DNA of 63,093 bases, the filler included, from Stramenopiles sp. TOSAG23-2 (lineage: Eukaryota): NCBI GenBank assembly GCA_900128395.1. It is 6 parts of 6 records of this genome, joined end to end, with 100 filler letters (N's around TTAATTAATTAA, not from the genome) between each part and the next. Parts side by side here need not be neighbours in the genome. Positions count along the whole stretch, not along the records: positions 28,230 to 56,321 come from LT649408.1; 5 more parts are not named here. The stretch is one strand, 5' to 3'. The translations under genes and the position numbers were made by a program. Below, in pieces: positions 19,342 through 44,571 of this stretch; within the stretch, counting starts at the first letter, position 1; the number at the start of each line of letters is the position of its first letter. Under the pieces are notes generated by a model, which was given only the letters and a program-made list of their open reading frames with translations, searched no databases and was not told the origin of the DNA.

Positions 19342-22300
19342 ATGGATATAATAGGCAAGATGTTTCCATTTACACTTGTCAAAAAAAGTCATACAAATAA
19401 ATATAATATTAATAATTTTGTATCATTCCATCGTCCTTTTTATAACGTTTTATTGTTATTATTGTTATTATTCATTTTATTTTTAGATAGTAATAATAAT
19501 CGTTTTGGTCACATTTTTGTATATGCGGATGATCTAAATGGATTACCAAACCCACCACACCGACCGACATTTGTTGCGAAAACGGTAACAGCTACTACAG
19601 CAACTTTAAACTGGGCACCAGTACAAACGGATTCATCACCAGTAGTAGATTCTTTTGAAGTACAATTTAAACCTATATCGGATACGAACTGGCAAACAGC
19701 TTCTAGTACTGTTGGGAAGAGAGATAGTAATAAAGGGTTGAATGAGATTCAAATTATAACAACGCGTGCTGATGTAGGCCAGGATATTAATGATGGTTGG
19801 TTCCGTCTCTCATTGCATCATAAAGGATTAAATGATTTCGACCCGGAATCAGCAACTATGACTGATCGTATGCCATATAACGCCACTGCTTTGGAGGTTG
19901 AATATCAATTAAATATGTTAGCAAATATACAATTTACAGGCACAACAACTCATGTAACTCGTTCGTTACCAGATGCACAAGGTGGTTATCGATGGGCAGT
20001 CTCGTTTGAGCTTGGTGCAAATACCGTTGCACGAGGGGAGCAAAATGCACCATTCGATGGTACCTTACCAGCTGAAGATATACCATTACTTATATTGCAA
20101 CAAGAAAGTATTTCAGCTATATGGTCTGGTGGTGGGCTACAAGTACACCTATCAGAAGTTCGTAAAGGATCAACATTAGGTGGTGCGTGTGAGCAAACGA
20201 CGCCAACGCATGCAGGTGTTACTGGTCCTGATTATGAAAATGTTTTCATGGGTACACCAATTTGTAAATACAAAGTCGCATCGTTGCTAACGAATACACA
20301 TTATCATTTTCGTATACGTGCACATAATTTATTAGGATGGGGTCCATATAGTGGAATTAGTGAGCAAATATTAACCTTACGAGCATTTGCACCATTGACT
20401 CCAGCATCGCCAATGTACAGTTCCGGCAATAGTACCTCGATAACAGTACGTGCAGTGCCATTCGGCAATTTAGCAGACGGTGGGGAACCAATTACAGGAT
20501 GGGATTTTCAATATAGAATTGCAAATTCAGGTATTGCATGGATTCCATTTTCAGGCGGTTCCGCAAAAAGCACTTCCCCATACATGGAAGTTGCACGTGG
20601 TACTTCAGCAACAGTTGTTGGCTTGGAAAGCAATAGACAATATGAATTTCGTGTCCGTGGGCGGAATGTTATTGGGTATGGTCCATGGAGTGCAGGTAGT
20701 GAGCCAATGTCCACCTTAAGTGGTATTTCAATAGCACCATCAACCCCCGTAGTCGTTGAAAAAAGTATTTCTGAAACTACGATGGAATATCAATTTTTAC
20801 CACCAAGTGAAACAAATGGTGATACAATAGAAAAATATGAAATACATAGACGTAGTACATCTACGATAGAGAAAGGTGGGATATGGCATAGAGTTGGATA
20901 TATTGATGCAGAAAGTACAAAAGGTTTAAATGAAATACAATGGGTTCATACACGGGCGGATGTTGGTGAAAGCATTAATGATGGTTACTTTCGTTTGAAA
21001 TTTAATCATGGAGGATTAACAACAGCAGATCCTGAAAAAGGGACGATGACGGAGCGTATAAAATACGATGCAACTGCAAACGAGATGAAGCATGCTATTG
21101 AAAAATTAAAAAATGTACAAAAACTAATACGGGTTGAAAGGCACGGGCCAAATGTACAAGGTGGGTATTCATGGGAAGTCATGTTCGATGGAGAACATGA
21201 GAAAACACATGGTAATTTACCTATGATGCAATTGCATGACGAAGATATTACTGCACTTTGGACCGGTGGTGGTAGACAAGTTTACATCACGGAAGCACAA
21301 CGGGGCAGTACGAGGACCATATTGAACCAAATTACATTTAAATTGACAGGTTTGTTACCATATACTGTATATGAAACTCGTGTCCGATCTATTGGTAAAA
21401 ATGGTGTATCCACTTGGAGCAGTCCTCACAGTATTCCTGTCCGTACTAAACCAAAGTTAATGCAAGTATTGATAAAAGCACCTACCTCTACTAAATCTGT
21501 ATTGTTACTTCAAGGAAGTTTAAAAGATGCACCAAATACAATGGATCATGATTTTGCATCTGGTGCTTCATATGGAGGGGGTCTAGGTCAAAATGGGGGT
21601 AACGGCTTTGTAGTTATTACATCCTATTTGTACAACCAACAAAAGGCACCACAAACACCATTCTTTTACGTATGCCGGGGGCAGCCGTGCGAGGGTTACC
21701 CGCAGACATACACCGTCCCAGAGTCTACTGTTGAGGGAAGTAGCGTTGCTTTTGTTGAAATTAAAGCGTGGGGTGCTGGTGGTGGCGGTGGCTGTGGTAA
21801 TTTCACGCAAGGGGGTGCTGGTGGTTATGCGCAAATGAGAGCAAATGCTAAGTCTGGGGATACTTTCATTATCAGAATAGGAGGTGGTGGTGTTGGTTGC
21901 ACCGGGGAAGAAGGTGGCAATTCTGGCTACAACGGTGGCGGTGTCGGGGGCAAAGGTGATTTTGGTGGTGGCGGCGGTGGTGGAGCGACTGATGTATGGA
22001 AAGGTACTGAAATGGATCAATTGGTTTTAGTCGCTGGTGGCGGTGGTGGTGGTGGAAGTACGGATTATTGTTGTGCACATGGTGGTGCCGGTGGTGGTTA
22101 TGAAGGTGAAATGGGGCGTACTCCTCGAGCAACGCCGAAAGATAATACTGGAATCAATAAGAGAAAAGAATTCAGTACGCCAGGCCGTACGGATCCTAGA
22201 GATGAAATCGGTTTTGCTGCATATCATCAACATGTTGATATGGGTTTTGCCCCTGGAGCAAATTTGACTGAGTTGTCGACATCTGGTACAGGTGGTTCGT

Positions 22301-24921
22301 TAAGACAACTTAAAGGTGGCTTGCCTGGTGCTTCTGGTTCTTGGGAATATTCATTAGCTGGGGAAGTCTACCCATTATCAATAGAAGGAAGGCCTAAAAT
22401 TTCTGAAATCAGAGGTAGTAGCCCAGCTTCCGTAGCAACTGCTGGGCGAAGAGGTCAAGGGGGTAGAGGTCAATCTGGTAAAGAAGCAGGTGGTGGTGGA
22501 GGTGGTGGGTATTTCGGTGGTGGGGGTGGTGGAGCAGGTGTCGATGGGTCCGGTGGTGGTGGTGGCTGTGGATTTGTGAATAAATCTATTGTCTTTGACG
22601 AGGAGCATACATTTAGTTCCAGAGAAGCTTCTACACCAGAAAAGCCTGTAGCACCTCGTATAGATTATATGGATCATCGTTTAATTCGTTTATCTTGGAC
22701 ACCACCAAAATTTGGTTACTTGGCTGGACCAGCTAGTTATATTTTAGAAGTAGCTAGTGGCCCATCAAGTACTGATTTCAAAGAGATATATACCACTACT
22801 GGTCAAGGTACTACTGGTTTCAGAGGTACTATTATGCCAGATACGGATCAAACATCAATCAGCGAAGATGAGGACGAAGATCGCTTACTTTATACGTTCT
22901 TCGTTGAAGATAAATATACGGATGAAGTTGTTTCGGATATGATGCAAAGACCGATTTACCGTTTTCGAGTGCGTGCAACATCGCGTGCTCGTGGGAGTGG
23001 TTTTGTAAGTGAGCCTACCATCGTGGAAGTTCCAGGGTTACCATTGAATGAATGGACGAGGCTTGTGCCACGTCCATTCATGCTTGCCAGTGTTGGTGGT
23101 GGAAGACGTTTACATAATGGCCCAACATCTGAATTTGATCTCTATCCAGCTGCTAGAAGAGGCCACACGGTCGTGATGATAGGTGGATTTATGTATTTAT
23201 TCGGTGGTTGGCAAGAAGGATATCGTTGTGGCACACCATTTCAAAATGAACACAGGGCGGGTTTAGAAAATATTGATCCGGCGTTCCCTACACGGCCTTT
23301 TTGCAGGCGAAAACGGGGAACATCCAATGAATTATGGCGCTACGATCCTATAACCAACACATGGGCACAATTACGGACTCAAGGAACTTTGCCACCACCA
23401 CGTGAAATGCACACTGCCGTGGTGGATACTGCTAATCCTGGCTCGTTATATCATGGGAAGATGATCATATTTGGTGGCCATGGAGGTGGAAATGGCACAA
23501 CCAAGGATGGTGGACCAGGAGGATTGGAATATTTTGATGACATCTGGGAAATGGATCCTGATAGATTAACATATGAAACTACTGATGGGGGAGGAAAAAA
23601 TAAACCAATCCAAGATGGACGAAATTTATTTGTCAGTACATTTGCAAATGTAAGCTCAGATCGATGTTTAGTCGATGTTGATGTCACGGTAAACATAAAG
23701 CATGGATGTACACGTGATCTAATCATCGAGCTCTTAGGACCAAGCCATCGACACCAAGGTGTAAATCATCGAGAATCACAGCAAAGACAGCATGAACGTG
23801 GTCAATTTGATACTGGATCTGAAAGTGCGGCTGATCCACCACAAGCCAGGGACCAACGGACATTATTATTTGATGGTTTCGATGGAACAAGTTCTGGTTG
23901 CGGGGTCAATTTAGAAAACTTACGCTTTGATGATCGTGCAAACCGTACTGTTGAAGAATGCTGCCCAAGTCCATTTAAAGGCTCGTTTAGACCTGTATCC
24001 AAATTAAATGTTTACAATGATTTGCAAGTAAGAGGGGAATGGTCCTTACGAATCTATGATCAACGGGCCAATTCATTGAATGGTTCATTGGTAAACTGGG
24101 AATTGCATTTCACCATGCGTCCATGTGAGGCACGGTACAAATGGACAGATTTAAGTGCGCAAGTTAAAAGCAATAGTAATGGAGCGATCCCAAGCCCTCG
24201 TTATGGACATACTACCGTCGTAATCGATCATCAAATGTTCCTTTGGGGTGGACATGCATGGTCGCGCTATAAAGATTTATGGCGTTTGAATATTACGAGT
24301 AGAACATGGTATAAATTAAATACACGAGAGTACAGAGCACCAGAGCGTTATGGTCGTGCATCTGTCATTAGCCCATGGCAAATTTTGAATTTCGGTGGAT
24401 ATATGCACACTCGTTTTGCACCATTTCTATGGAAATATGATCCAATTAACTTTAAATGGACGCGTTTAGATACGTTCGGCGTTCCGGGTGGCCCAGTGAC
24501 GTATACACACCGTAGTACAGAGGAACCAACGCCGACGCTATATGGGGAAAATATGCCAGTAGCAAGGCAAATGACATCGCTAGTGTTAATTGGATTGAAA
24601 GGTACGCCATCAAGACAACGCGGTATATCACATCCGAAAATTTTGATGTTTGGTGGATATGATGGTATCGCATATATGGATGATTTGTGGCAATTAGATT
24701 TAAAATTGTTAGGAATCGATCATGATATGATTGGTGGTGGTGAAGAAGAAGTTAATTGGCGAAACAATTGTATATGGAGATTAAAAAAAGGATCTACGGA
24801 AGATAATTTATGGAAGAGTACATGTGATAGCCAAGGGAGTCAAACAGCAAATTGTTTAATTGATGATGTGTTGACGAGAGCATATTGTAGAAAGCAATAT
24901 CAAGGAATTATGAATTTTTAA
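19342..24921 (+). CDS. Secreted or membrane-anchored multidomain protein: FN3 repeats, Gly-rich domain, Kelch repeats, proprotein-convertase P domain
   Basis: Hydrophobic N-terminal stretch. FN3 motifs (YHFRIRAHNLLGWGPYS, YEFRVRGRNVIGYGPWS), GGGGG tracts (IKAWGAGGGGG, LVAGGGGGGG), Kelch motifs (RRGHT..MYLFGG, PPREMHT, PRYGHT) and a P domain (VTVNIKH..DL.I.L..P ... GEWSLRIYD...GSLVNWEL). Confidence 0.85.
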   Translation: MDIIGKMFPFTLVKKSHTNKYNINNFVSFHRPFYNVLLLLLLLFILFLDSNNNRFGHIFVYADDLNGLPNPPHRPTFVAKTVTATTATLNWAPVQTDSSPVVDSFEVQFKPISDTNWQTASSTVGKRDSNKGLNEIQIITTRADVGQDINDGWFRLSLHHKGLNDFDPESATMTDRMPYNATALEVEYQLNMLANIQFTGTTTHVTRSLPDAQGGYRWAVSFELGANTVARGEQNAPFDGTLPAEDIPLLILQQESISAIWSGGGLQVHLSEVRKGSTLGGACEQTTPTHAGVTGPDYENVFMGTPICKYKVASLLTNTHYHFRIRAHNLLGWGPYSGISEQILTLRAFAPLTPASPMYSSGNSTSITVRAVPFGNLADGGEPITGWDFQYRIANSGIAWIPFSGGSAKSTSPYMEVARGTSATVVGLESNRQYEFRVRGRNVIGYGPWSAGSEPMSTLSGISIAPSTPVVVEKSISETTMEYQFLPPSETNGDTIEKYEIHRRSTSTIEKGGIWHRVGYIDAESTKGLNEIQWVHTRADVGESINDGYFRLKFNHGGLTTADPEKGTMTERIKYDATANEMKHAIEKLKNVQKLIRVERHGPNVQGGYSWEVMFDGEHEKTHGNLPMMQLHDEDITALWTGGGRQVYITEAQRGSTRTILNQITFKLTGLLPYTVYETRVRSIGKNGVSTWSSPHSIPVRTKPKLMQVLIKAPTSTKSVLLLQGSLKDAPNTMDHDFASGASYGGGLGQNGGNGFVVITSYLYNQQKAPQTPFFYVCRGQPCEGYPQTYTVPESTVEGSSVAFVEIKAWGAGGGGGCGNFTQGGAGGYAQMRANAKSGDTFIIRIGGGGVGCTGEEGGNSGYNGGGVGGKGDFGGGGGGGATDVWKGTEMDQLVLVAGGGGGGGSTDYCCAHGGAGGGYEGEMGRTPRATPKDNTGINKRKEFSTPGRTDPRDEIGFAAYHQHVDMGFAPGANLTELSTSGTGGSLRQLKGGLPGASGSWEYSLAGEVYPLSIEGRPKISEIRGSSPASVATAGRRGQGGRGQSGKEAGGGGGGGYFGGGGGGAGVDGSGGGGGCGFVNKSIVFDEEHTFSSREASTPEKPVAPRIDYMDHRLIRLSWTPPKFGYLAGPASYILEVASGPSSTDFKEIYTTTGQGTTGFRGTIMPDTDQTSISEDEDEDRLLYTFFVEDKYTDEVVSDMMQRPIYRFRVRATSRARGSGFVSEPTIVEVPGLPLNEWTRLVPRPFMLASVGGGRRLHNGPTSEFDLYPAARRGHTVVMIGGFMYLFGGWQEGYRCGTPFQNEHRAGLENIDPAFPTRPFCRRKRGTSNELWRYDPITNTWAQLRTQGTLPPPREMHTAVVDTANPGSLYHGKMIIFGGHGGGNGTTKDGGPGGLEYFDDIWEMDPDRLTYETTDGGGKNKPIQDGRNLFVSTFANVSSDRCLVDVDVTVNIKHGCTRDLIIELLGPSHRHQGVNHRESQQRQHERGQFDTGSESAADPPQARDQRTLLFDGFDGTSSGCGVNLENLRFDDRANRTVEECCPSPFKGSFRPVSKLNVYNDLQVRGEWSLRIYDQRANSLNGSLVNWELHFTMRPCEARYKWTDLSAQVKSNSNGAIPSPRYGHTTVVIDHQMFLWGGHAWSRYKDLWRLNITSRTWYKLNTREYRAPERYGRASVISPWQILNFGGYMHTRFAPFLWKYDPINFKWTRLDTFGVPGGPVTYTHRSTEEPTPTLYGENMPVARQMTSLVLIGLKGTPSRQRGISHPKILMFGGYDGIAYMDDLWQLDLKLLGIDHDMIGGGEEEVNWRNNCIWRLKKGSTEDNLWKSTCDSQGSQTANCLIDDVLTRAYCRKQYQGIMNF

Positions 24922-25077: not shown

Positions 25078-25962
25078 TTAACGTCTTCTGTTAAAGTTAC
25101 CTCCTCTTCTTCCTTTTCCTTTACCAAATCTTCCTCTTCCACCTCCTTGTTTTCGATTTTTACTTTGTTTTCTCATTTCGATAGAACGTTCAAAATGTTT
25201 CTTTTCCTCTTCTTCTGGTAGCATTGATACGAAAATTTGTTCGCCATTAATGTCTTTGATATCCTCACATGCTTTTTTAGCATTCTCTACTTCAGAGAAA
25301 CGAACTTCAGCATGATTTTCAAACATTTCTACAAATTCAACTTTACCAGCTGCACCAAATGCTTCTTTGATTTGACTAAAATGAATATCAACACCTTTCT
25401 TTTTAAGATCATCCAACCCATCAACTTTTAATACTGTACCTGGTTTCATTACTGGCGCTTTAAATTTACGCTTGTTGTCTCTTCTGTCAGTACTACGTGG
25501 TGTTTTTTTCCTGGACTGCGTACCAAATACAACATCTAAACATTTTCTGAAAGAAAAATCTTCACATGTGCCATCCGTACGAACAATAAAGAAACACATT
25601 GTACCCGTGTATTCAGGATGCTCGTCATATTTAAAACTTGCAAAGCCACATCCAATTTTTTCCAAATATTTTGGATGTTTCTCTAACAAAGCTTTCAATA
25701 CTGTTGCTGCTTTTCCATCAACGGTTGCACCACGGATTAAACTATCACGCAATGCACGCATGTAACTCCAGCATTCCTCCTTGTTTTGAAAGGTCATTTC
25801 ACCTAATTTACCACCAAATTTAACAGTTTTTACCAAGTTAATTTCTTTTGTGTATAAAATAGCTTTTGAGTTATTTGCTAATTCCCATGATAACTCCAAT
25901 ATACGTACACCATCTTCACGTGTATTTAAATATGTTGCTGGTCCTAATTTCGTATTTTCCAT
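25078..25962 (-). CDS. DUF3223 (DeCL-like) + RRM + RGG-tail protein
   Basis: LLEKHPKYLEKIGCG...HPEY...CFFIVRTDGTCEDFSFRKC matches DUF3223. RRM-like VLKVDGL..IKEAFG..GKVEFV..AEVRF and an RGG/FG tail follow. Start placed at MENTK (25962) because the upstream in-frame sequence is low-complexity. Confidence 0.8.
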   Translation of the reverse strand: MENTKLGPATYLNTREDGVRILELSWELANNSKAILYTKEINLVKTVKFGGKLGEMTFQNKEECWSYMRALRDSLIRGATVDGKAATVLKALLEKHPKYLEKIGCGFASFKYDEHPEYTGTMCFFIVRTDGTCEDFSFRKCLDVVFGTQSRKKTPRSTDRRDNKRKFKAPVMKPGTVLKVDGLDDLKKKGVDIHFSQIKEAFGAAGKVEFVEMFENHAEVRFSEVENAKKACEDIKDINGEQIFVSMLPEEEEKKHFERSIEMRKQSKNRKQGGGRGRFGKGKGRRGGNFNRRR

Positions 25963-26817
25963 GATATTGTTATTTAGTATGATTATATATAAATCTATAT
26001 CTTGTTGTTTTTGTTTTATTTTCTCCTGCTCTTTACTTGTATATAATTCTACACACACACACATATATATATCCATCTCATCTTCACATCATCCAGATAT
26101 ATATATATATTTGATGCATAACATATTCGCGAATCAATGGTTATGGTTGCAATCGGAGGAAGGAGGAAGGAAGGAAAATTGGCCAAATTAAAATACATTT
26201 TACTGCTGCTGTGGCACCAACGGAAATTTATTCGCAAAAAATAATTGATCTCTAATATTAGAAATATAATGTTATTTCTATTTTAATAAGGTAGGTTTAA
26301 GGTATTGGTATAATATTTGATATGTTGTTTTAGTCTGCGTCGTCAAACTCTTTCTTTCTAATCTTGTTTTAGTATTAATTTATAATCTGTTCCAACTATC
26401 CTTTGGTCTTTTGACAATAATTAAACAATACCCTTAATACCCATCATCAAATTTCACCATCCAGAAATTCTCTTCTTTTTTTTTTTTATTTGATATGAAG
26501 CGCCAATACCAACTTAATACAGTCCAGCAGTGTGTATATATATTATGTCTTGGTACATGCAAAAAAGAAATAATATAAAAGTAGTTTAAGTTCAAAACCA
26601 CAGGAATATATATATAGCAAGCCTGAAAAGCAAAAAAAGGTATTCAATATTATATATTAGATAGATAGATAGTCATCTCGTCTACATACAATAGTTTGAT
26701 ATACCAAGGTAAATAATAAATATCAGATATACAAATATATATATAAATTATATATTCCATTTATTATTACTTGAGAAGGTATATATACTTTCATAATCAC
26801 ATATCAGAATAATAATA

Positions 26818-33285: not shown

Positions 33286-35178
33286 ATGTATGGAAATCAG
33301 AGACAAGGTAACTTTGCAGGCAATGGTGGTTATGCGCAACCGCCTGTAAATTATCAACAACCAAACGGTGGATATATGATGCAACAGCAAGCAATGCCAC
33401 CAGGTATGAATGGCATGAATATGGGAATGCAACAAAATCGTTATGCTGGAAATAATATGAGACCGGGACAACCATCTTACCAACAGATGGATCCATCCGG
33501 TATTAGACCGGGCATGGGTGGCAATGGCGGTTATGGTAGAGGTCCAATGGATGGCCAACATCAAATGCAACAAATGGGTGGTGCTATGAATAATATGCAT
33601 GGACAGCCAAATGGTTATATGAATCCAGGCATGGGACAAAATAATTATCAAAACACTAGAGGATATTACAATGACGGCGGACAGCGCAACAATATGATGG
33701 GCGGCAGTGGAAACCCACGGAATCCAATGCAAGGCAATATTATGGGAAAAGGAAATTTAGGCGGTGGGAGAATGGGAAACGGAGGTATAAATGGTTTTAA
33801 TAATGGTGGAATGGATGGCGGGTTTAACAACTCGGATTTTCCAGCGATAGGTGGCGGGATGATGAATCAAAATGGTGGCATGGGTGTAAATTCATACCAA
33901 AACGCATTGCAACATATGCCAGCACCGCAACCACCAAAACCAGAGTTCAATATGGACGACGAAGATTTTCCAACGTTAGGCGGACCAGCAAAAAAAAAAG
34001 GAGGAGGAGTAGGCGGTGGCGATACTAGTAGTTCAAAAGATGGCGATAGTGGTGTACCACAGCAACAACAAAATAATTCAGATAATATGAATGAAACGAA
34101 GCAAGATGTACAGCGAATGCGGCATAGGCGTCAAGACCAACCAAATCAACAGCAATACCAGCAACAAGGAATGCCATCAGTGTCACATCAACAACGCCAA
34201 CCAAATAATCAGCAGCAGCAGCAACGTATGACAAACCAGACACAGCAGCGACAGCAGCAAATGTCACAACAACAACGTCAAGTACAACAGCAACAACGTA
34301 TGCAACAACAACAGGTAGGCAATAGGCAAGGTGTAAATCAAGCCCCAATTCAATCCAGGCAACAACAACCACCGGCACCGCAGCAACAGGCACCGGGAGT
34401 ACAGCAAAATTCGTTTAATTCTATACGACAGCAGCAACCAATTCAGCAACCTCTTTCCAATGCTAATAATCACAATCAACAGCAGATGAACGATACATTA
34501 GCAAGTGGGCAAACAACACAGGGTCAAGCAGCTCAAGCACAGCAAATGAATGCATTGAAAAATACGTTGATTGATATTGGCAGAGGTTCGCGTGCAGTTG
34601 AAAAGAAAGGTTTGAAAGAAAATCGATATGGAATATTAGGTTTGTTAGACATTATACAAGGAGGCGATCCCAGTATTAGCATATTATCGCTAGGCTTAGA
34701 TTTGAAAGAAATATCCCCACAAGCTGGGGCTAATAGTGGGAAAATGTATGCTCAATTTTCATCCCCATGGTCGAACGAACCGTCAACAAAAGCACCACCA
34801 TATTTTACACCGTCTTGTTACATGATACCACCACCAGCTTTAAAAGCGGGACATTTAAAAAAATTCAATATACAATCATTATTTTACGTATTTTACGCAA
34901 TGCCACGTGATATCTTGGCAATTTATGTAAGCAAGGAATTATATCGTCGAAAATGGATGTATAATAAAAAAGCAATGTCGTGGTTTATTCAGGAAGATGG
35001 GAAGATGTTACAGTATTTCGATACAAAATCATGGAATGTAAAACCTTATAATGGTGGAAACATTTCATTGGACGTTTTAATGGCAAGTATGATGCCAATA
35101 AACGAATTACAAATGCAGGAACGACAACAACAACAGCAGCAGCAGCAACAACAACAACAAGGTCAACCTCAAAAATGA
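33286..35178 (+). CDS. CNOT2: CCR4-NOT subunit 2
   Basis: Q/N/G/M-rich N-terminus with DFP(A/T)(I/L)GG motifs. YGILGLL..LSLGLDL..FSSPW..PSCY..LFYVFYAMPRD..ELYRRKWMY is the NOT2 NAR/NOT-box. Confidence 0.9.
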   Translation: MYGNQRQGNFAGNGGYAQPPVNYQQPNGGYMMQQQAMPPGMNGMNMGMQQNRYAGNNMRPGQPSYQQMDPSGIRPGMGGNGGYGRGPMDGQHQMQQMGGAMNNMHGQPNGYMNPGMGQNNYQNTRGYYNDGGQRNNMMGGSGNPRNPMQGNIMGKGNLGGGRMGNGGINGFNNGGMDGGFNNSDFPAIGGGMMNQNGGMGVNSYQNALQHMPAPQPPKPEFNMDDEDFPTLGGPAKKKGGGVGGGDTSSSKDGDSGVPQQQQNNSDNMNETKQDVQRMRHRRQDQPNQQQYQQQGMPSVSHQQRQPNNQQQQQRMTNQTQQRQQQMSQQQRQVQQQQRMQQQQVGNRQGVNQAPIQSRQQQPPAPQQQAPGVQQNSFNSIRQQQPIQQPLSNANNHNQQQMNDTLASGQTTQGQAAQAQQMNALKNTLIDIGRGSRAVEKKGLKENRYGILGLLDIIQGGDPSISILSLGLDLKEISPQAGANSGKMYAQFSSPWSNEPSTKAPPYFTPSCYMIPPPALKAGHLKKFNIQSLFYVFYAMPRDILAIYVSKELYRRKWMYNKKAMSWFIQEDGKMLQYFDTKSWNVKPYNGGNISLDVLMASMMPINELQMQERQQQQQQQQQQQQGQPQK

Positions 35179-36006
35179 TACATGTTACAGATATGATATT
35201 TGAAATGTATATTACTAATATATGATTATATATTTTAGTATACATCAACAAATATTATACCAAAATGGAAAAACATATCATATATATATATTTTTTAATG
35301 TAATAATTAGAAAGTTTTATTTAGAATTAAATGGATGAGGTGGTATTAATTATAATATGAAAAACGTGTTGTTTGTTTGATGTTATTAATTGCTGTTTGC
35401 AATTGAAATATAATTTTATTTCTGCGTGTAGGTATTGAAAGTAACTACTTGTGATTAGTGTGTGAATGAATGTCATATATAATGCATTAATAGGATGCAT
35501 CTAACAAAAATGTACAGTTTTTAGTTTTTATAAAAACATCATAATTAATAGTTTAATAGAGTGGAAGGCGAGAGTATAGCGAGAATAGACGCACACGCGA
35601 AAAGTTTTTAGATATCATAGGACTTTTTTTTAAAAAAGATTCAAAATAAATATTTTATGTTTTTTTTAAAACACAAACTGTTTGTTATAAAAATTTATTT
35701 TTTATACGACGGTCCCACATATATTTTGACCGACACACACAAAAAATTAAAACTCTCTCTTTCAGTTCAACATTTTTTTAATACGAATTCGTAAGCTAGC
35801 AGTAGTATAAAAAAAAATTGAGCACGCATCCATCATGACTGAAATGACGAACCAACCCATATTCAACAAAAAAAAAAATAGAAGAGTAGCAAAAAACCAT
35901 AGAAGCAACATTCAAAAGATATGTAAAGAACAAACAATAAAGAATATCTTACCATATCAACATAACAGCAACTCAATATTTTGAACACGACAAGAACAAA
36001 TTCACA

Positions 36007-39000
36007 ATGTTAACTATTATATCTTCGTCAGTGAAAAAAAATGTTTTCAAACAACATGTTCATTTTAAAAAAATCAATAATAACAAAAATGTAATAATAA
36101 CAACACGTCGTACTATGGCGACAATGAAAAAATGGAGAGATTATATTAAAGAAAATCCATACTCATATGAACGTGGAGGGGAAGGATATAAGAAGATAGA
36201 GGAGATTATAAATAATTTAAGTCATTCGGAATTGCAAATTTTCGTTAATTTAAGTGGTGCTGCAAAATCATTTGGTTCATTGAGTAAAGAAGCATGGTCC
36301 GTAGAACATTTAGGTTTTAATATTGCAAGAGAAGTTGTCGGTAGACGATTAGGTGTCTCAATGGAAGAAGCACCAGGTCCAAGGTCAAATTCTGGGGAAG
36401 GTGGACAGCTAATGGATGATCCAAATTCAAAAGCATCCATTGTGCAAGTCGCTAGTGGACGTTGGATGGGTGATTCGCCATTGAAATATCTAGCCGATGC
36501 AGAAGAGATTGATATCAAAATTGCACAAGGTGTTAAACCAGGCGACGGTGGACATTTGCCGGGAACAAAAGCTACGCCATTAATTGCGCGTGTGCGCGGT
36601 GCAAGGCCTGGAAGAGATTTATATTCACCACCACCACACCACGACATTTACTCCGTAGAAGATTTAGCACAACTTATACATGATTTGAGGCAAGTCAATC
36701 CTCAGGTAAGAAAAATATGGGTGAAATTAGCATCACGTAGTGGTGTTGGACCGATTTCATTAGTAGTAGCCAAAGCAGGTGCTGGCGTTGAAGTGACTGG
36801 ATTTGGTGGTACTGGTGCTGCAAAAGCAGAGAGCAAACATTTTTATGTAAGAGACAATACACCTGGAATTTTGGAGGTGCGAAATAGTTTAATATCAGAA
36901 GGTTTATGGCCAATAGATTTAGCAGCCAGTGGCCGTATACAAACAGCAGAAGATATCGCACGTGTCGTTTTCATGGGTGCGAATCGTATCAATATGGGCA
37001 CACCACTCATGCTTGCGAATGGATGCGTGAAAGCAGATTCTTGTCAAAATGATGATTGTCCAGTAGGTATTGCGACGCAACAAGAGCATTTAATAGAAAA
37101 ATTCCCAGGAAGGCCAGAAAATGCAATACGTTTCCTTTCTTTTCTATCAAAGCAAACCCAACGAATATTTGATCAATATGGATTAGATTTTCATAGTGCA
37201 CGAGGCCGTGCTGATTTGTTACAAGTTGAAATGAATGAGTCAATACGTACAGGATTGCCTGAATTTTTGAAGCTGCCGGAGCCTCCAGCATGGGCAGCAT
37301 CACTATCAAAAACGCAACGTGTACCGCATGATTTGTTCGATAAAACAACGGAGCAAAAATTAATTGCAAATATTGCATTGTTACCAGATTCCTTAAACGA
37401 AAAAATTGTTTTGAATGAATCTATAACAAACAAGCATAGAACGTTTGGTGCATTGCTTTCGAATCATATCGTTCGAAACAAAGATTTTGAAGAGAAAATT
37501 AATAAAAATGGATTAAGGATTAATTGTGACGGTGTTGGCGGGCTAAGTTTTGGCACTGGATTACCAAAAAACGTTGAATTAGTTGTAGATGGACCGGTTA
37601 ACCATGGTGTAGGCAAAGCATTAAGTGGCGGAACAATCATAGCGCAAGTGATGGGCGATCAAGCTGGATATGGTGCTGGAAACGGTACATTGATCACCCG
37701 CTCAATCGGCGATCGTGCTGCAATTCGGAGTTATGAATTAGATGTCTTAGTCGAGACGACTGGTGATATGAGCTCTTGTTACCGTACTGGTGGCCATTTT
37801 TTCGTTCTAGGGCATCCATCACATTACAATAGCAGTAGTACATTTAAAGTTGGTAATTATAAAAGTATGGATCTATGGTCAAATAACCATGCAATGGGTC
37901 CAGGTATCGGTGGCGGTATGGGTGGTGGCGTAATTGTCCTACCACGTCAATTGCATGAGGAGAATGTATCAAATATGAGATATGCACCATCATTACAAAA
38001 TGTTTTGCCCCGTGATATGAAACCAGAAGAGACGCAGTTGCTTGTAAATTTATTGACTCAAGCAAATGGTGCTTTAAAAGATTGCCAGCTGATGGAAGCA
38101 CTATTAAATGAAGGCGAAACGTTTTTAAATAAACATATGGTTGTCCTTGATCCAGTTGCTGCCCAACCAATTGCCAAAGGAAAACATCATCCAAATGTTA
38201 CATGGAAAAAGCACGAATCAGAGAATTCCGTATTAGCAATCGATTGGGAAAAAGGAAACGAACGTTCAATGAGTGCCTTGAATATTGCGCAAAGTAAAGG
38301 ATTTTTCGATGTATTTCAAGAATTAAGCGGGACAAGTCTTAAAAGAGAAGAATCCAGCGCTTGTGGTGTGCATTTTTTAGGTGCAAAACAAGGATCATCG
38401 AAAGAGGTAGTTGACCGGTTGTTACATAGCTTACATTTAATGGCTCATCGTGCCGGTTATGCTGATCCAAAATCATGTGATGGCGCTGGCATAAATTTAA
38501 AAATTGACGCTGAATTCTGGAAAAACAAGTTCCCAAATTTTAAAGATGTTTTTGAGGACAATAATTATGCCATCGTTGCATCGTTTATTCCAGAGGAAGC
38601 AAAAGCGGGGGAGAAATATATCGCGCGTTTTGAAAAACATTTAATAAATGAAGGTTTGACATTAAGTGCAAAGCGTGAAGTTCCGATGAATAGAGAGCAT
38701 TTTGGTGTTGTTGCCACTACACAGCAATTACCTATCATGCAATTTTTAGTACTGCGTCCAACTGATATGCCCAGTGCTAAATTTGAGGCGGCATTGTTAC
38801 GATTTCAAACACGCATGGATTATGAAACATTAAAATCAACGTGGGACCTAGAGAAAAAACCTTCTATCATATCAGCAGAGCCGGATGGTAATGTTATTTA
38901 CAAAGGTTTAATGGCTCCAAGCGATTTAGCAAATGCATTTCCAGATTTAAAAGATCCATTATGTAAAGCATCTCGCGGTTTAGTTCATGATAGATTTTGT

Positions 39001-42000
39001 ACAAATGCACCAAAAGGTTTAGATAAAATCCAGCCACTATCCATTATAGCTAATAATGGGGAAATGAATAGTCTATCATCATTATACCAATTTATGACAA
39101 ACGATAGTAGCTTTTTAGATTTTCTGGGCCTTGAAGAGAGTGCCAAGTTATGGGACGAAACGTTGGAAGGGGAAGTTCCATTGAGCGATTCGTACATGTT
39201 GAGTGTCTATTTAAGATACTTATTAGCAACGCAGCCGGAAAAATCATTTGTGGATCATATTGCCTCGTTGATACCGAATGTTGTAAATAAGCAAGAAGAT
39301 CCTGAGCGTTACTTATCGACATTTTTAGCCGCTGTAAATTATGTCGGTCCTTTAGCCGGCGTATTTTCATGGTCTGGTAAAGTAGTAGTTGGTGTTGATC
39401 CAAATGGTTTCCGCCCATTATGTGCTACTGAATTTACAAATGAAGAAGGTACAGAGTTTTTGCAATTTAGTTCAGAATGGATAACGGATATTGACGGAGC
39501 AAAGTATTCCGTCGTACATCCAGGCCAAGTATTAGAATTAGATGCTACAAATGGTAATATTATCCCAGCAAATATGGGCGAACCGTGGAATGAGCATCCG
39601 GCAAATAGCAACAGCAAAGGGACGAAAAAGAAAAAAAGTGAGGGGACTTTTGGAATATATTTTTATCCTCCAAAGAGCAAGAACGATGTTTCACCAATAC
39701 AGGATTTAAATACTGAAATTCTTCATGCATTAAAACCAATGGTTGGATGGAATCAGGATAATGATAAATATGTCAAAGATCTTTGCCGTGGTAAACTGTC
39801 GATTGAATCCATGGGCCATGCAGGGCCAACTGCTAGTGAAGTTCGTGGCAATGTTGCGCCAAATAGTTTTGATTTGCTAAATCATAGTTTTGCGCAAGTT
39901 AGTAACCCTCCATTGGCGTGGAGAGAGGAAGGTGATTATATGTCCTTGGATACGCGTGTTGGTCCATATCTATTGCCGTCCCCTTTTCTATCTAATGCAA
40001 TGATAAATTCGTTGCAAGAAAAACTAGAGTCAAAAGTAGTATCCACCACATTTCCAGTGCATACAATGGCACCAGGAATGAGGGTGTGTCTTCAACGCAT
40101 CGTAAATGACGTTGTAGAAGCAGTTGAAGAAGGAAAACGATTTATAGTCTTATCAGAACTTGATATTAGTCCTAGCAACGGACCATGCCCATTAAATCTA
40201 GTCGTTGGTTCTGTTCATCAATCCTTGCTTAAATTAGGTTTGAGAAAGGATGTACACTTGTGCGTGCAGAGCATTTCCGCTTTGCGTCCAGGTCATTTTT
40301 CACAATTATTAGCAATGGGTGCTGATACAATTCACCCAGTATTACTGCTAGATCCTCGCGTAAATGCATCATTGGAGGAAACTAATACCGATGAAGATTC
40401 TGTAAATATTTCTATGGAAGAACACTCTGCGAATGTTTTATCTGGCTGTGACGAAGGTTTGAAGCATTATATGTCAACGGTTGGTTTAGGAACTATCAGT
40501 TCATATCGTGGCGGATCTCACATTTGGCAAGCAGAAACATTGAATACTGAAGTTGCGGATTTAATGGGTTTGCAACCACCAAGATTTTCCGGTATTGGCT
40601 TTGGAAGATTAGCGAAATGGCTGTATACCACTTGGTTTTTCCCATCTAAAGAAGGACCAGGGTTGTACCAATACAACGGACAACGTGCAACTGTTCCTGT
40701 TTGGTCAGCTGAATACACTCGTGCAGTAAGACGTATGGCAGCAGATGAAAAAGAAGATGAAACCATGATCCAAGATATGGAAGTTGCTTGCGACAATGTC
40801 AATGTAATTAAACGTAGTGCTTGGAGTATGTCCCGTATACCATCAAAAATGTGGGGGCCTGAAAATCCAATGAATATATGCGTAGTAGGTGGTGGCGCAG
40901 CAGGGTATTTTGTAACTAACGAATTGCTTGAAGCGGATATCCCAGCCAATGTCACCATGGTAGAAAAAAATTTAATCAATGGTGGTGGTGTTGTATATCG
41001 TGGCCTTTCTCCATTGCATCATTCAACGAAACGAAATACGTTGAAAAGGCTATTAAATATTCATAAAAGTGGAATAGAAAAAGGCGCCTTAAGCTATGCT
41101 GGTGGTGTTCAAATAAATAAAGGAGATTTAAAAAAGTTATTATCCACCTTTAGTGTAGTCATTGATGCATCTGGATCATCAACGGCAAATCACTTGAGTT
41201 GTCCAGGTCATCAACATGCAACCGAAGCGGCAGAAATTTACAGCAGATACAATCAAATCATGGATCCAACCTCAATAAAAAGTAGTGTCGACTCCCATTG
41301 GCATGGTTCTTTAAATCGCTTTAATCGCGCTACGGTAGTTGTTGGAGGTGGAAATGTTGCATTTGATATTTTATCTGTATTGACATTGAGTAAACATTTA
41401 TTCGAACCACATACAATTAATCAAAAATTTATCGAAGCGCGAGATGAATATGGCTCTACACATGTTGTGTCATTAATACGCAAGCAACCGTGGGATTTAG
41501 CCAGTGACGTCCATGTTTTGAAAGAATTTTTTTCATTAATGCAAAAATCAAATGTCAAGATTCAAGTTAGTGGTGTTAGTAAATTGGAGCCTACAGATGA
41601 CATGACAGAGCAAGAACGGGCAAAATTAGAATTATTTTTAGAATATGTAGATAAAGAAGATAAATTGAATGAAGAATTTTGGCCTGAAGCAAGAGATGGT
41701 CGTAGTGTCCATTTCCGCTTCGGACAAGAAGTGTCGAATATTGAACGTTTAAAAGGTGGTTTAAAAGTTACCATTGGCCAAAATGGACAATACGTGAAAG
41801 AATTTCAAGCATACCAAGTGATTGAAGCTATGGGTTATGTTGGTGAGGATAAATTTGAAATATTTGGGGAAAACAACGGTGCATTAGAAAGCTTATCAGC
41901 GGAAGAAAAAAAGCAAATATATCAAGCCGGGTGGGCATTTAAACCTGGGAATTTAGCATCTGCTGAAGGTTCTGCGAAGAAAATTGTTGGAGAAATCACA

Positions 42001-42570
42001 CGAAATTATCACATGGGAGTTTTCCATGGATTGGGCAAAAGCTCTATTCAAGGTGCACAAATTGAACCGCTACTTGCCTCTGCACCAGTTGATACAAGTA
42101 CACAAGAAAATATTTTTAATTATTTACTTGAAGTTGGTCGTATCGAGGAGGCGGAAGATTATTTCAATGCAAGATCATTTGTTAGTATGGAAATGGCAGC
42201 AAATTTTGAAAGGTCTTTGTCAAATATACACACGCCACCAGCAGTTGATAGCGTTGATGATGTATTGGTTGGCGCAGTATCGAATGTTCGTGATGGCTTT
42301 TTCGGCTTTACGGATGATGGTGGTGATTTTATTGAATATGCAGCAAATGATGCACGTTTAGATGAAGTTATTGGATGTACTGGTAGTTGCGATGGTGCAA
42401 AAACTTGTTTGGATTGTGTTGTTGATGTAATTGGAAAAGAGGTAGATGCAGATGCATCAGAAACTAGATTATTGGCTCAAATTGGGATGTTTAAACCAAA
42501 TAGAATTTTGAGTTGTTGTCATACGGCAAAGGAGGTTGAAAAATCAACTGTTAAGTCAGTTGAGGCTTGA
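36007..42570 (+). CDS. Circularly permuted glutamate synthase-like protein fused to an adrenodoxin-reductase-like domain and a 2Fe-2S ferredoxin
   Basis: Motifs in order: SFGSLS/SNSGEGG/QVASGR/IKIAQGVKPGDGGHLPG/PPPHHDIYSVEDL/GGTGA/CX5CX4CPVGIATQ (FMN + 3Fe-4S); GLSFG/GKALSGG (GXGXG); SACGV/HR/DGAG/HDRFCTN/NNGE/SDS/NGFRP (GATase type 2); SMG/FAQVSNPP/ISSYRG (central); VVGGGAAG and GGGNVAFD (pyridine nucleotide oxidoreductase); CX5CX2C...RILSC (2Fe-2S). Confidence 0.92.
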   Translation: MLTIISSSVKKNVFKQHVHFKKINNNKNVIITTRRTMATMKKWRDYIKENPYSYERGGEGYKKIEEIINNLSHSELQIFVNLSGAAKSFGSLSKEAWSVEHLGFNIAREVVGRRLGVSMEEAPGPRSNSGEGGQLMDDPNSKASIVQVASGRWMGDSPLKYLADAEEIDIKIAQGVKPGDGGHLPGTKATPLIARVRGARPGRDLYSPPPHHDIYSVEDLAQLIHDLRQVNPQVRKIWVKLASRSGVGPISLVVAKAGAGVEVTGFGGTGAAKAESKHFYVRDNTPGILEVRNSLISEGLWPIDLAASGRIQTAEDIARVVFMGANRINMGTPLMLANGCVKADSCQNDDCPVGIATQQEHLIEKFPGRPENAIRFLSFLSKQTQRIFDQYGLDFHSARGRADLLQVEMNESIRTGLPEFLKLPEPPAWAASLSKTQRVPHDLFDKTTEQKLIANIALLPDSLNEKIVLNESITNKHRTFGALLSNHIVRNKDFEEKINKNGLRINCDGVGGLSFGTGLPKNVELVVDGPVNHGVGKALSGGTIIAQVMGDQAGYGAGNGTLITRSIGDRAAIRSYELDVLVETTGDMSSCYRTGGHFFVLGHPSHYNSSSTFKVGNYKSMDLWSNNHAMGPGIGGGMGGGVIVLPRQLHEENVSNMRYAPSLQNVLPRDMKPEETQLLVNLLTQANGALKDCQLMEALLNEGETFLNKHMVVLDPVAAQPIAKGKHHPNVTWKKHESENSVLAIDWEKGNERSMSALNIAQSKGFFDVFQELSGTSLKREESSACGVHFLGAKQGSSKEVVDRLLHSLHLMAHRAGYADPKSCDGAGINLKIDAEFWKNKFPNFKDVFEDNNYAIVASFIPEEAKAGEKYIARFEKHLINEGLTLSAKREVPMNREHFGVVATTQQLPIMQFLVLRPTDMPSAKFEAALLRFQTRMDYETLKSTWDLEKKPSIISAEPDGNVIYKGLMAPSDLANAFPDLKDPLCKASRGLVHDRFCTNAPKGLDKIQPLSIIANNGEMNSLSSLYQFMTNDSSFLDFLGLEESAKLWDETLEGEVPLSDSYMLSVYLRYLLATQPEKSFVDHIASLIPNVVNKQEDPERYLSTFLAAVNYVGPLAGVFSWSGKVVVGVDPNGFRPLCATEFTNEEGTEFLQFSSEWITDIDGAKYSVVHPGQVLELDATNGNIIPANMGEPWNEHPANSNSKGTKKKKSEGTFGIYFYPPKSKNDVSPIQDLNTEILHALKPMVGWNQDNDKYVKDLCRGKLSIESMGHAGPTASEVRGNVAPNSFDLLNHSFAQVSNPPLAWREEGDYMSLDTRVGPYLLPSPFLSNAMINSLQEKLESKVVSTTFPVHTMAPGMRVCLQRIVNDVVEAVEEGKRFIVLSELDISPSNGPCPLNLVVGSVHQSLLKLGLRKDVHLCVQSISALRPGHFSQLLAMGADTIHPVLLLDPRVNASLEETNTDEDSVNISMEEHSANVLSGCDEGLKHYMSTVGLGTISSYRGGSHIWQAETLNTEVADLMGLQPPRFSGIGFGRLAKWLYTTWFFPSKEGPGLYQYNGQRATVPVWSAEYTRAVRRMAADEKEDETMIQDMEVACDNVNVIKRSAWSMSRIPSKMWGPENPMNICVVGGGAAGYFVTNELLEADIPANVTMVEKNLINGGGVVYRGLSPLHHSTKRNTLKRLLNIHKSGIEKGALSYAGGVQINKGDLKKLLSTFSVVIDASGSSTANHLSCPGHQHATEAAEIYSRYNQIMDPTSIKSSVDSHWHGSLNRFNRATVVVGGGNVAFDILSVLTLSKHLFEPHTINQKFIEARDEYGSTHVVSLIRKQPWDLASDVHVLKEFFSLMQKSNVKIQVSGVSKLEPTDDMTEQERAKLELFLEYVDKEDKLNEEFWPEARDGRSVHFRFGQEVSNIERLKGGLKVTIGQNGQYVKEFQAYQVIEAMGYVGEDKFEIFGENNGALESLSAEEKKQIYQAGWAFKPGNLASAEGSAKKIVGEITRNYHMGVFHGLGKSSIQGAQIEPLLASAPVDTSTQENIFNYLLEVGRIEEAEDYFNARSFVSMEMAANFERSLSNIHTPPAVDSVDDVLVGAVSNVRDGFFGFTDDGGDFIEYAANDARLDEVIGCTGSCDGAKTCLDCVVDVIGKEVDADASETRLLAQIGMFKPNRILSCCHTAKEVEKSTVKSVEA

Positions 42571-43434
42571 GATTTTATCATATTTTTATATTATAATATT
42601 ATATATATTTTTAGAAAAGTATAGGAATTATTTCAATTATCATGAGTAAATTAAAAAATAAAATTTTAACTGCGTAAAACTAATATAATATTATTTTTAT
42701 ATATCTTGAAGAGTAGGAATTATCATGAGTAAATTAAAAATAAATTATGCGTAAATTAAATTATTATAAAAGATAAAAAAAAAATAAAAAATATACTTTT
42801 GTATTTAAATTTATAATATTAATAGGATATCTGGTTATATTTTATAAAAATGAAAAACTTTTTATGATCCTTTTTTCTTCTTGTTGTCTCTAATATCAAT
42901 TTTCTGAGACGCGATTACAAAATACTTTTTTTGACAAATATTGTGTGTGTTTTGGAAAAAAAAAAATAAAACACTTTGCCCATGTATTCCCCATTTTCTC
43001 TAAATTTTGATTTTTTTATGATCCTTTTTTCTTCTTGTTGTCTCTAATATCAATTTTCTGAGACGCGAACAATAATACGTTTTTTCATTAAAACATATTT
43101 TTTGGTACAGTAGAGGGAGAGAGAGGTTTTTTTATTGTTCAAAATACTTTTTTTGACAAATATTGTGTGTGTTTTGGAAAAAAAAAAAAAAACACTTTGC
43201 CCATGTATTCCCCATTTTCTCTAAATTTTGATTTTGTTATTTTTAATATTATATATAATATACTACGTGTGTATAAAAATATACTTCCTATGTTTGAATT
43301 AATCAGTTTGTTCCTCTTCAGTTGAAAACACTTTGCCCATGTATTCCCCATTTTCTCTAAATTTTGATTTTGTTATTTTTAATATTATATATAATATACT
43401 ACGTGTGTATAAAAATATACTTCCTATGTTTGAA

Positions 43435-44571
43435 TTAATCAGTTTGTTCCTCTTCAGTTGATGATGTACGTTCCCTCCTAACTAATGGAACATCATTACC
43501 AGTCGGTACGAAACCTTTCCAATTAGCTTGCCAAAAGCTAGGTGGACTTTGCATTTCACCTCTTAACGCTTTCATTACCCTATCATTAGGTACATTACCA
43601 TCGACATCTGTAAAGCCAAATTCAGCACCTAATTCATGTGACATAACTACTTTGCCACTTTTTTCCATTGTACGTCTACCATTTTCATCAGCTGATAAAA
43701 AAACAACCGCTCTACCTACAAATTCTGGACTTTCTGGAGCTTTTGATTTACTAATACGATCGCCTCTCGGACCCATTAATAATCTTTCAGTTTTGATTAA
43801 CCCTGGCCACATCGAGACCATTGCAATACGATGTGGTTTTAAATCCTCAGCGCAATCGCGAGTAAATCTATCTGTAGACGATTTAGCAATACCATAAGGG
43901 ACACTTGTATAACGTTTCATACCGCCGAAACTAGAGATGTTTACAATCAAACCATTCAATGGTCCATCGTTACTATTATTACTTCTTTTCTTTGCTTTTG
44001 CCCTTTCTACCATGGCTTTGGAGGCTAACATAGCACAGAAATAGTGAGATCGTAACCCAACGCGAGTATGATTATCAAAATGTTCCATAGTATCACGTTC
44101 CCACCATGATTCGCCATTTTGATTAATTCCACTACCAGCATCGCATGCATTATTTACAAGAATATCAAGGCATCCATGGTTGTCTCTTAAAAGTTGATTA
44201 AAAACATTATTTGTATCTTCATCATTTGCGTGGTCACAATACATTCCTACACAAGACCCACCAAGACCAGCAGCTTCAGCAGCTGCATTAATAGCTTCTG
44301 TTGCTTCATCAATGGAACCTGGTAATTTGGATGTGCCAACTTTGGTACGACCTGTGATGTAAACCTTACATCCAGCTTTTGCCAATGCTAATGCACAACC
44401 ACGGCCTATACCTCTGGTTGCACCTGTTACTAATGCTACTTTCCCTGTTAAAGGTGGGATAGCTTGTTCATTACTACCGGTAAAATGTTTAAATATTGCA
44501 TTTAAACGTCTATTTGCTGCTTTATTTATTACTGGTGTAATATCATTATGTGGTATTCTTGGACATTCCAT
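43435..44571 (-). CDS. Short-chain dehydrogenase/reductase (DHRS1-like)
   Basis: ALVTGATRGIGRG, LDILVNNA, NISS, YGIAK (YxxxK), SMWPG. Confidence 0.93.
   Translation of the reverse strand: MECPRIPHNDITPVINKAANRRLNAIFKHFTGSNEQAIPPLTGKVALVTGATRGIGRGCALALAKAGCKVYITGRTKVGTSKLPGSIDEATEAINAAAEAAGLGGSCVGMYCDHANDEDTNNVFNQLLRDNHGCLDILVNNACDAGSGINQNGESWWERDTMEHFDNHTRVGLRSHYFCAMLASKAMVERAKAKKRSNNSNDGPLNGLIVNISSFGGMKRYTSVPYGIAKSSTDRFTRDCAEDLKPHRIAMVSMWPGLIKTERLLMGPRGDRISKSKAPESPEFVGRAVVFLSADENGRRTMEKSGKVVMSHELGAEFGFTDVDGNVPNDRVMKALRGEMQSPPSFWQANWKGFVPTGNDVPLVRRERTSSTEEEQTD

Follow-up and report, generated by a model that had tools for sequence, protein, structure and literature searches.

Most fixed nitrogen enters biomass by way of two enzymes, of which glutamate synthase (GltS, or GOGAT) is one. 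Its classes are regarded as settled: ferredoxin (Fd)-, NADPH- and NADH-dependent enzymes, together with archaeal forms. In archaeal-type GltS the domains lie on separate polypeptides and the central domain is missing. N-terminal nucleophile (Ntn) amidotransferases need the free α-amino group of their catalytic cysteine, which acts as the base. In known systems, adrenodoxin reductase (AdR) and adrenodoxin (Adx) are two distinct polypeptides with roles in P450 function or Fe-S assembly. As given in the Vanoni 2021 review (PMC8097209), the alpha subunit of the A. brasilense enzyme is ordered glutamine amidotransferase (GATase), central, flavin mononucleotide (FMN) and GXGXG domains, and the GltD subunit of the known NADPH-GltS carries FAD and two 4Fe-4S clusters. 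Here we describe a gene of Stramenopiles sp. TOSAG23-2 (GenBank assembly GCA_900128395.1) whose product is certainly a GltS-superfamily enzyme, but in which the chain is circularly permuted and the electron-input module appears to be of the AdR/Adx type. The DNA analysed, called the window throughout, is 63,093 nt long and joins six parts of six records of this genome with 100 filler letters between parts; the gene lies within the part taken from LT649408.1 (positions 28,230 to 56,321).

At window positions 36007-42570 on the plus strand, a single uninterrupted open reading frame (ORF) encodes 2187 amino acids plus a stop codon, in keeping with the first-pass annotation of this DNA. The protein is labelled P0001 here, and other P numbers denote homologues from sequence collections. 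Its features are as follows (A4 is a 20-row alignment of the family described below).

36007..42570, plus strand: whole ORF, 2187 amino acids; a single exon across at least 36286-42578, where collinear RNA contigs have no joints
36007..36114, plus strand: N-terminal extension, residues 1-36; basic and Ser/Thr-rich, with an alternative start at Met37
36070..37185, plus strand: FMN/synthase domain, residues 22-393 (Pfam Glu_synthase, E 3e-74)
37024..37059, plus strand: 3Fe-4S ligand motif C340-x5-C346-x4-C351-P, invariant in 20/20 rows of A4
37423..38172, plus strand: GXGXG beta-helix, residues 473-643 (Pfam GXGXG, E 3e-19), and its helical tail to about residue 722
38173..38361, plus strand: spacer, residues 723-785; predicted to be disordered, its end part resembling the leader that precedes the cysteine in canonical GltB
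38362..38364, plus strand: codon of Cys786, the internal Ntn-type catalytic cysteine by alignment with that of GltB; cleavage is proposed just upstream
38362..39567, plus strand: class-II (Ntn) glutamine amidotransferase domain, residues 786-1187 (Pfam GATase_2, E 6e-41)
39787..40518, plus strand: glutamate synthase central domain, residues 1261-1504 (Pfam Glu_syn_central, E 2e-34)
40861..42228, plus strand: AdR/FprA-like FAD/NADPH flavoprotein domain, residues ~1619-2074 (phmmer, family profile and Foldseek)
42259..42567, plus strand: adrenodoxin/putidaredoxin-type [2Fe-2S] ferredoxin-like domain, residues ~2085-2187 (four invariant cysteines and family profile)

All four core Pfam models scored above their gathering cut-offs, once each, in the order Glu_synthase, GXGXG, GATase_2, Glu_syn_central; a further match, to Pyr_redox_2, covered residues 1623-1814 (E 2e-8). 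For comparison, the canonical GltB P0006 has its GATase domain at 20-440, central domain at 468-751, Glu_synthase at 821-1188 and GXGXG at 1270-1455. P0001 therefore departs from the canonical order by Pfam and also by phmmer against all PDB chains, in which the GltB match was split into two swapped blocks (query 780-1537 on chain residues 31-792, and query 115-604 on chain residues 907-1415) and Cys786 aligned with the catalytic N-terminal cysteine of A. brasilense GltB. The first-pass annotation had proposed this same order, with each of the four modules present once, the chain broken at the central/FMN junction and the GATase domain starting at 38362; each of these points held, the last falling exactly on the Cys786 codon. 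It had not discussed that the permutation places the Ntn cysteine inside the chain. Against the NCBIfam GltB equivalog NF008730, P0001 gave a partial match of 500 bits, below the cut-off of 1047.

The best solved relatives of P0001 are the bacterial NADPH-GltS enzymes (A. brasilense 6s6s/1ea0 and B. subtilis 7mfm; E 3e-117 for P0001 alone and E 0 for the family profile), with which it shares the four alpha-subunit domains, the Ntn cysteine, the synthase-site residues and the 3Fe-4S motif. Those enzymes combine a GATase-central-FMN-GXGXG chain with GltD, whereas P0001 runs FMN-GXGXG-GATase-central and continues into an AdR/FprA-type reductase and a putative 2Fe-2S domain. P0197 (2126 amino acids), an example of the eukaryotic single-chain NADH-GOGATs that arose as alpha-beta fusions, is, like P0001, one chain of ~2100-2200 residues in which a pyridine-nucleotide reductase follows the alpha-type synthase domains. 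However, P0197 is ordered GATase, central, FMN, GXGXG, Fer4_20, Pyr_redox_2, while P0001 is permuted, has a reductase from another subfamily and falls outside the clade that contains P0197. With Fd-GltS (Synechocystis 1llw/1ofd, and plants) the likeness would lie in the passage of electrons from a 2Fe-2S ferredoxin to 3Fe-4S and FMN, and the active-site residues align one to one. The difference is that the ferredoxin of P0001 appears to be adrenodoxin-type, covalently fused and supplied by its own putative NADPH reductase. The stretch before residue 934 of Fd-GltS, which we take to be an insertion specific to that class, has no counterpart in P0001 in the alignment. Finally, the C-terminal ~570 residues of P0001 are closest to the reductase fold of AdR and FprA (1cjc, 1e6e, 1lqt) followed by an Adx-type C-x5-C-x2-C...C motif, but here both modules share one chain with a glutamate synthase.

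The last ~680 residues of P0001 (~1505-2187) form a large module that the first-pass annotation did not cover. To judge from sequence comparison, this module is an adrenodoxin-reductase/FprA-type flavoprotein followed by an adrenodoxin-type [2Fe-2S] ferredoxin, placed at the break point of the permutation. The annotation had spoken of a clean permutation; the permutation stands, but with this insertion the protein is not a plainly permuted GltB, Fd-GOGAT or NADH-GOGAT. When the C-terminal segment alone was searched with phmmer, bovine adrenodoxin reductase (1cjc_A) was the best match (E 3.8e-7, compared with 2.4e-3 for the GltS small chain). A profile of 21 family sequences widened this gap, matching AdR 1cjc at E 1.4e-49 and FprA at 7e-47, and GltS small chains at 1e-12 to 3e-8. 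An AlphaFold2 (AF2) model of residues 1540-2187 (mean predicted local distance difference test score (pLDDT) 75, predicted template modelling score (pTM) 0.73) gave the same ranking in Foldseek: the seven best PDB matches were all either M. tuberculosis FprA or AdR (E 1e-22 to 1e-20; FprA 1.3e-22, AdR 9.2e-22, TMt 0.69-0.76), and Nfn/GltD-like proteins appeared only from E 6e-13. The two-dinucleotide-binding fold that defines the AdR/FprA group is present with both its FAD and NADPH glycine motifs: G1628, G1630 and A1631 are at least 90% conserved in A4, and the GxGNV NADPH motif is invariant in the family alignments A1 and A2. By analogy with AdR and FprA, P0001 probably prefers NADPH.

Residues 1505-2187 had no Pfam match to Fer4_20 at E<=10, and no cysteine cluster of the 4Fe-4S kind was seen in the sequence between residues 1505 and 1620. 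Together with the kinship to AdR and FprA, this indicates that the reductase is not of the GltD type. In the ferredoxin-like domain, the candidate 2Fe-2S ligands C2128, C2134, C2137 and C2170 follow the spacing C-x5-C-x2-C-x(30-37)-C and are invariant in all 21 rows of A2. The last ~100 positions of the 21-sequence profile matched whole adrenodoxin/putidaredoxin/terpredoxin-type ferredoxins (E 1.8e-7 to 1e-3), and Pfam placed Fer2 at the corresponding position of the relatives P0158, P0161 and P0192. It is plausible that an AdR/Adx pair here replaces GltD, that is, the FAD and two 4Fe-4S clusters of the known NAD(P)H enzymes.

P0001 is a member of a family. A HMMER scan with its residues 400-1560 against 1.84 billion representatives returned 148 proteins at E<=1e-30, and Pfam was run on 19 long, high-scoring picks from these: 17 were permuted as P0001 is (three of them truncated), one (P0170) kept the canonical order around a long insert and one was a canonical NADH-GOGAT. 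When 352 proteins of at least 1100 amino acids, near-duplicates included, were classed by the order of their BLAST matches, 39 were permuted, 306 canonical and seven partial. The relatives are unnamed in public collections or carry generic names such as 'hypothetical protein' or 'glutamate synthase domain-containing protein 2/1'. The first-pass annotation knew of no GOGAT with this domain order. That was borne out for published work, since the full-text literature yielded no paper on a glutamate synthase that is permuted or fused to AdR/Adx (subscription-only reviews and supplements lie outside its coverage), but the architecture is not confined to the window. What is new in the family is the topology and the electron-input module; the GltS superfamily itself is known.

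Three forms were recognised. The A-type order, FMN-GXGXG-GATase-central-AdR-Adx, is that of P0001 and at least 17 other proteins. The B-type, represented by P0170, has the canonical order with an insert between the central and FMN domains, GATase-central-[~750 amino acids]-FMN-GXGXG, and its insert holds an AdR-like domain and an Adx-type cysteine motif. BLASTP of P0170 against the A-type P0158 gave two collinear but swapped blocks (30% identity over 1364 columns and 38% over 710 columns). The B-type is known from two proteins of different sources, as P0307 (2205 amino acids), in which Pfam finds GATase, central, Pyr_redox_2, Glu_synthase and GXGXG in turn, is 55% identical to P0170 across 98% of its length. 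A- and B-types thus share one cyclic order, GATase-central-AdR-Adx-FMN-GXGXG, and differ in where the chain ends lie, which is the relation expected of circular permutants; in both, therefore, the ferredoxin adjoins the synthase domain. The C-type consists of GATase-central-AdR-Fer2 alone (P0192, 1439 amino acids; P0225, P0515 and P0516, ~1426 amino acids). The gene for P0192 (RAP32559.1, DID75_04685) adjoins that for P0395 (RAP32558.1, DID75_04680): their locus tags are consecutive, and both lie on the same contig of 19,565 bp. P0395 is a 700-residue FMN-GXGXG protein, the best short match to the family profile (882 bits, the next having 676), and it ends at the point equivalent to the canonical GltB C-terminus. 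As in archaeal-type GltS, the domains need not share a chain, which this pair suggests, yet the P0001 family keeps the central domain. Metagenome locus scans with P0170 and P0161 gave no confirmed locus, and the clusters that a search of the ESM Atlas gave were all generic GltS ones without taxa.

Could the permuted order have arisen in silico, by the joining of two genes or of tandem truncated copies during assembly or annotation? The first-pass annotation had pointed to the interval 38150-38400 as the place where a misjoin would show. The stretch 37800-38800, which spans the GXGXG/GATase junction, was found in 20 of the 24 listed sequencing runs. These came from 14 studies, every one marine or seawater, and included six RNA libraries, mostly polyA. 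Contigs of four runs, three of RNA (X13, X17 and X19) and one independent DNA metagenome (X3), were aligned to 35500-43000. The interval was bridged collinearly by an RNA contig of X13 (37800-38840), by one of X17 (37701-42578, a collinear span of 4878 nt) and by the X3 DNA contig (37553-39084), while the X19 contig (37592-38368) passed the GXGXG end and stopped before 38400. No joints were present in the contigs of the four runs within 35500-43000, and the covered part is therefore free of misjoins and introns. We rejected misassembly because independent RNA and DNA contigs cross the junction without joints. Identical 2187-residue proteins also occur on several contigs from ENA and NCBI, and the same order recurs in the 39 permuted proteins above, down to ~25% identity. 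No point in favour of an artefact was found, and we consider one barely conceivable. The recovery of RNA from several metatranscriptome studies establishes that the gene is expressed in marine plankton.

To place the family, 42 proteins (22 from the family and 20 canonical) were aligned separately over the GATase+central and FMN+GXGXG segments, which were then joined, and 1247 of 2316 columns were kept. Trees were built by quick searches under LG+G4 and under LG+C20 with posterior mean site frequencies (PMSF). Under both models the family (22 rows) and the canonical set (20 rows) separated into two clades, with a Shimodaira-Hasegawa-like approximate likelihood ratio test (SH-aLRT) value of 100. 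On these sequences, the permuted/AdR-fused proteins are a deep, monophyletic family. With the canonical branch as root, the family first divides into P0001, P0003, P0004 and P0005, all A-type, and the rest, within which the B-types and the C-type P0225 form a clade (99-100). Both trees thus nest the B-type inside the A-types. This tentatively favours an A-type ancestor, with the B-type as a later re-permutation, possibly via a split intermediate. However, constraining all A-types to one clade cost 31 lnL units and was not rejected by the approximately unbiased (AU) test (p-AU 0.135; the group was named after seeing the tree).

The next question concerns the internal cysteine. According to a preprint (bioRxiv 10.1101/2021.04.12.439528), GltS has its catalytic cysteine at the N-terminus, and the C1A mutant shows no glutamate synthase activity; Cys1 is likewise the catalytic residue in PMC8097209. 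An AF2 model of P0001 residues 440-1250 (m06ec4e4f0f66; pLDDT 78.8, pTM 0.80) was confident through the beta-helix and its helical tail to ~722, fell to pLDDT ~30 for the 723-784 spacer and was confident again from 785, with the first GATase strand at 787-793. The helical tail is homologous to the canonical GltB C-terminus, and the residues just ahead of Cys786 align with the leader that precedes the cysteine in canonical GltB and in B- and C-type proteins. Therefore, the junction resembles a canonical C-terminus followed by a canonical N-terminal leader, with a spacer modelled as flexible between them.

The same activity could in principle be reached without cleavage, if Cys786 served as an internal nucleophile, some other group provided the base and the spacer of 60 residues looped from the beta-helix to the glutaminase site. 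A long disordered spacer could span that distance, and the predominance of the fused permuted form (17 of 19 picks) implies that covalent linkage is tolerated or even favoured. Nevertheless, the cysteine is N-terminal in the GltS class, and apparent two-chain forms exist (P0395/P0192). Moreover, GATase-first members of the family carry 70-100 residues ahead of the cysteine (P0225 and P0515 begin with Met and a ~70-residue leader), as canonical GltB has a leader, which implies processing. If such a leader is kept even where the GATase domain comes first, processing upstream of the cysteine would be expected in all forms. We thus think an uncleaved enzyme unlikely. Cleavage of the A-type precursor before Cys786, which would yield the same two chains as the split gene pair, is the most economical reading of these alignments.

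Conservation was then considered for both half-reactions. In the canonical set, 177 columns are near-invariant, with the same residue in at least 19 of the 20 sequences, and P0001 retains 130 of them (49/69 in GATase+central and 81/108 in FMN+GXGXG). On the glutaminase side, C786-G787, R815, D825-G826-G828, H994-R996-T999, N1017-G1018, S1060-D1061 and R1136-P1137 are invariant in A4, C786 is also invariant in the 15 rows of A1, and the GATase domain of the predicted model matched GltS structures in Foldseek at E 1e-24. On the synthase side, A4 is invariant at GEGG 130-133, Q174, K177, R197 and E218, as well as at the three 3Fe-4S cysteines. In the alignment with Synechocystis Fd-GltS (1llw_A), these residues correspond as follows.

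P0001 Q174: Q969 of Fd-GltS
P0001 K177: K972 of Fd-GltS
P0001 R197: R992 of Fd-GltS
P0001 E218: E1013 of Fd-GltS
P0001 C340, C346 and C351: C1137, C1143 and C1148 of Fd-GltS

We take the aligned residues to have their GltS roles, namely the 2-oxoglutarate/FMN site, the loop-4 coupling glutamate and the 3Fe-4S ligands.

On this evidence, we favour, with some reservation, the view that P0001 is a working, self-sufficient NADPH-dependent glutamate synthase whose precursor would be cleaved ahead of Cys786 to give two chains. Within that view, we regard function as a glutamate synthase as probable, and both the cleavage at Cys786 and the proposed electron path as plausible. The cut would fall just before Cys786, as for the short N-terminal leader of ordinary GltB, freeing the α-amino group, and the two chains, ~37-785 (the synthase half) and 786-2187 (glutaminase, central domain, reductase and ferredoxin), would stay assembled. 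NADPH would reduce the FAD of the AdR-like domain, from which single electrons would pass to the fused 2Fe-2S cluster, then to the 3Fe-4S cluster and the FMN of the synthase domain. Glutamine would be hydrolysed at Cys786 and the ammonia channelled to 2-oxoglutarate at the FMN site, where the resulting 2-iminoglutarate would be reduced to glutamate.

Several observations count against this proposal. P0001 is a very divergent protein: its GATase_2 match scores 141 bits compared with ~587 in canonical GltB, and it differs at 47 of the 177 canonical near-invariant positions. The glutamate of KPGEGG (E975 in Fd-GltS numbering), present in 20/20 canonical sequences, is never Glu in the 20 family rows that include this column; the equivalent is P0001 residue 180 (window 36544-36546), and family members have D, Q, K, V, L, I or T there. 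The ferredoxin-like domain of P0001 on its own had no Pfam match at E<=10 and reached only E 0.63 against the solved ferredoxin 3lxf, and its N-terminal half was modelled by AF2 with low confidence. The split of P0395 and P0192 may stem from a sequencing error, from an intron or from a pseudogene and not represent a true two-gene form.

The divergence also raises the question of whether P0001 is a related but different enzyme, one using another amide donor or 2-oxoacid, acting mainly in catabolism, or keeping the glutaminase only as a structural or regulatory domain with ammonia as the substrate. The family clade is long-branched and lies outside all 20 canonical sequences, the GltB equivalog score falls well short of its cut-off, and other canonical invariants besides E975 (the T of NGEINT and the K1487 equivalent) are replaced family-wide. 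Yet the equivalents of Q969, K972, R992 and E1013, the oxyanion-hole Asn-Gly, the cysteine nucleophile and the SDS motif are invariant among members only ~25-35% identical. Such invariance across divergent members argues for purifying selection on both half-reactions, and a different enzyme seems to us improbable. Both half-reactions look to be under selection, and details of substrate or mechanism may differ because E975 and other canonical invariants are replaced throughout the family.

Taking the proposed glutamate synthase one step further, we tentatively suggest, with rather less assurance than for the activity and cleavage above, that the family is a third pyridine-nucleotide GltS class of eukaryotic microbes and perhaps some bacteria. 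Such enzymes would use a mitochondrial-type AdR/adrenodoxin system in place of GltD. In the permuted chain the synthase half would be a 785-residue 'propeptide' of an Ntn glutaminase, and Ntn self-processing would turn a single precursor into an enzyme of two subunits.

At least some members of the family are eukaryotic, as seen from the window, from polyA RNA and from the EukProt members P0123 and P0517. P0123 (2151 amino acids) is 36 residues shorter than P0001, starting at Met37, with the GATase domain beginning 36 residues earlier. P0001 and many relatives have basic, Ser/Thr-rich N-termini without acidic residues, and the extension of P0001 is possibly an organelle presequence. Two NCBI family records are labelled bacterial, one a Ca. 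Marinamargulisbacteria single-cell genome and the other an 'uncultured bacterium' metagenome-assembled genome. P0395 and P0192, from the former, have S/R-rich, presequence-like N-termini, on which a eukaryotic origin of their contig is plausible; eukaryotic DNA may have been binned as bacterial, or else the family may reach into bacteria. A scan of prokaryote contigs (the family alignment, one peptide pattern, at least 599 stretches) was a weak negative: of its five confirmed loci, the two examined were canonical GltB and the other three matched the FMN region only. Among 401 genomes of the cyanobacterial phylum searched with P0192, 157 had matches and no family member was found among those searched; every match among those listed covers GATase+central only, and 66 matches lie beyond that listing.

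The window around the gene is eukaryotic in character, gene-dense with AT-rich spacers, and includes PABP, NOT2/3/5, SH3, PHD, Kelch/fn3 and MORN genes. No tRNAs were found in the window, and an Rfam scan of 35000-44000 gave no match. In the 3′ flank of the GltS gene, a ~35-nt AT-rich direct repeat occurs at ~42622-42660 and ~42713-42750. Word depth in the X3 DNA run reached 375 there (bin 42528-42778), with 2516 at 42738, compared with ~5 within the gene; the repeat is probably a dispersed repeat or low-complexity sequence common to other organisms. Elsewhere, a very large ORF of 2754 amino acids at 5641-13905 (minus strand) has no Pfam family at E<=1e-3. The 1859-residue ORF at 19342-24921 (plus strand) carries fibronectin-III, an ALK/LTK glycine-rich domain and a proprotein-convertase P-domain together with Kelch propeller repeats; for a surface or secreted protein of a protist, such a combination is unusual. 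The ORF at 25078-26076 (minus strand) has DUF3223 and RRM_3; DUF3223 is mostly plant/algal and bacterial.

The P0001 family adds to the known glutamate synthases a form with another electron-input module and another chain topology. It offers natural tests of whether an Ntn cysteine must be a true N-terminus, of how glutaminase and synthase sites are coupled when the chain is cut elsewhere, and of the way in which fission and fusion re-wire enzymes built of several domains. If the family does represent a third class, its fused, re-permuted and split forms would record repeated fission and fusion at two flexible linkers. Permuted or split GltS genes of this kind could be overlooked or mis-split in surveys of nitrogen metabolism in protists.

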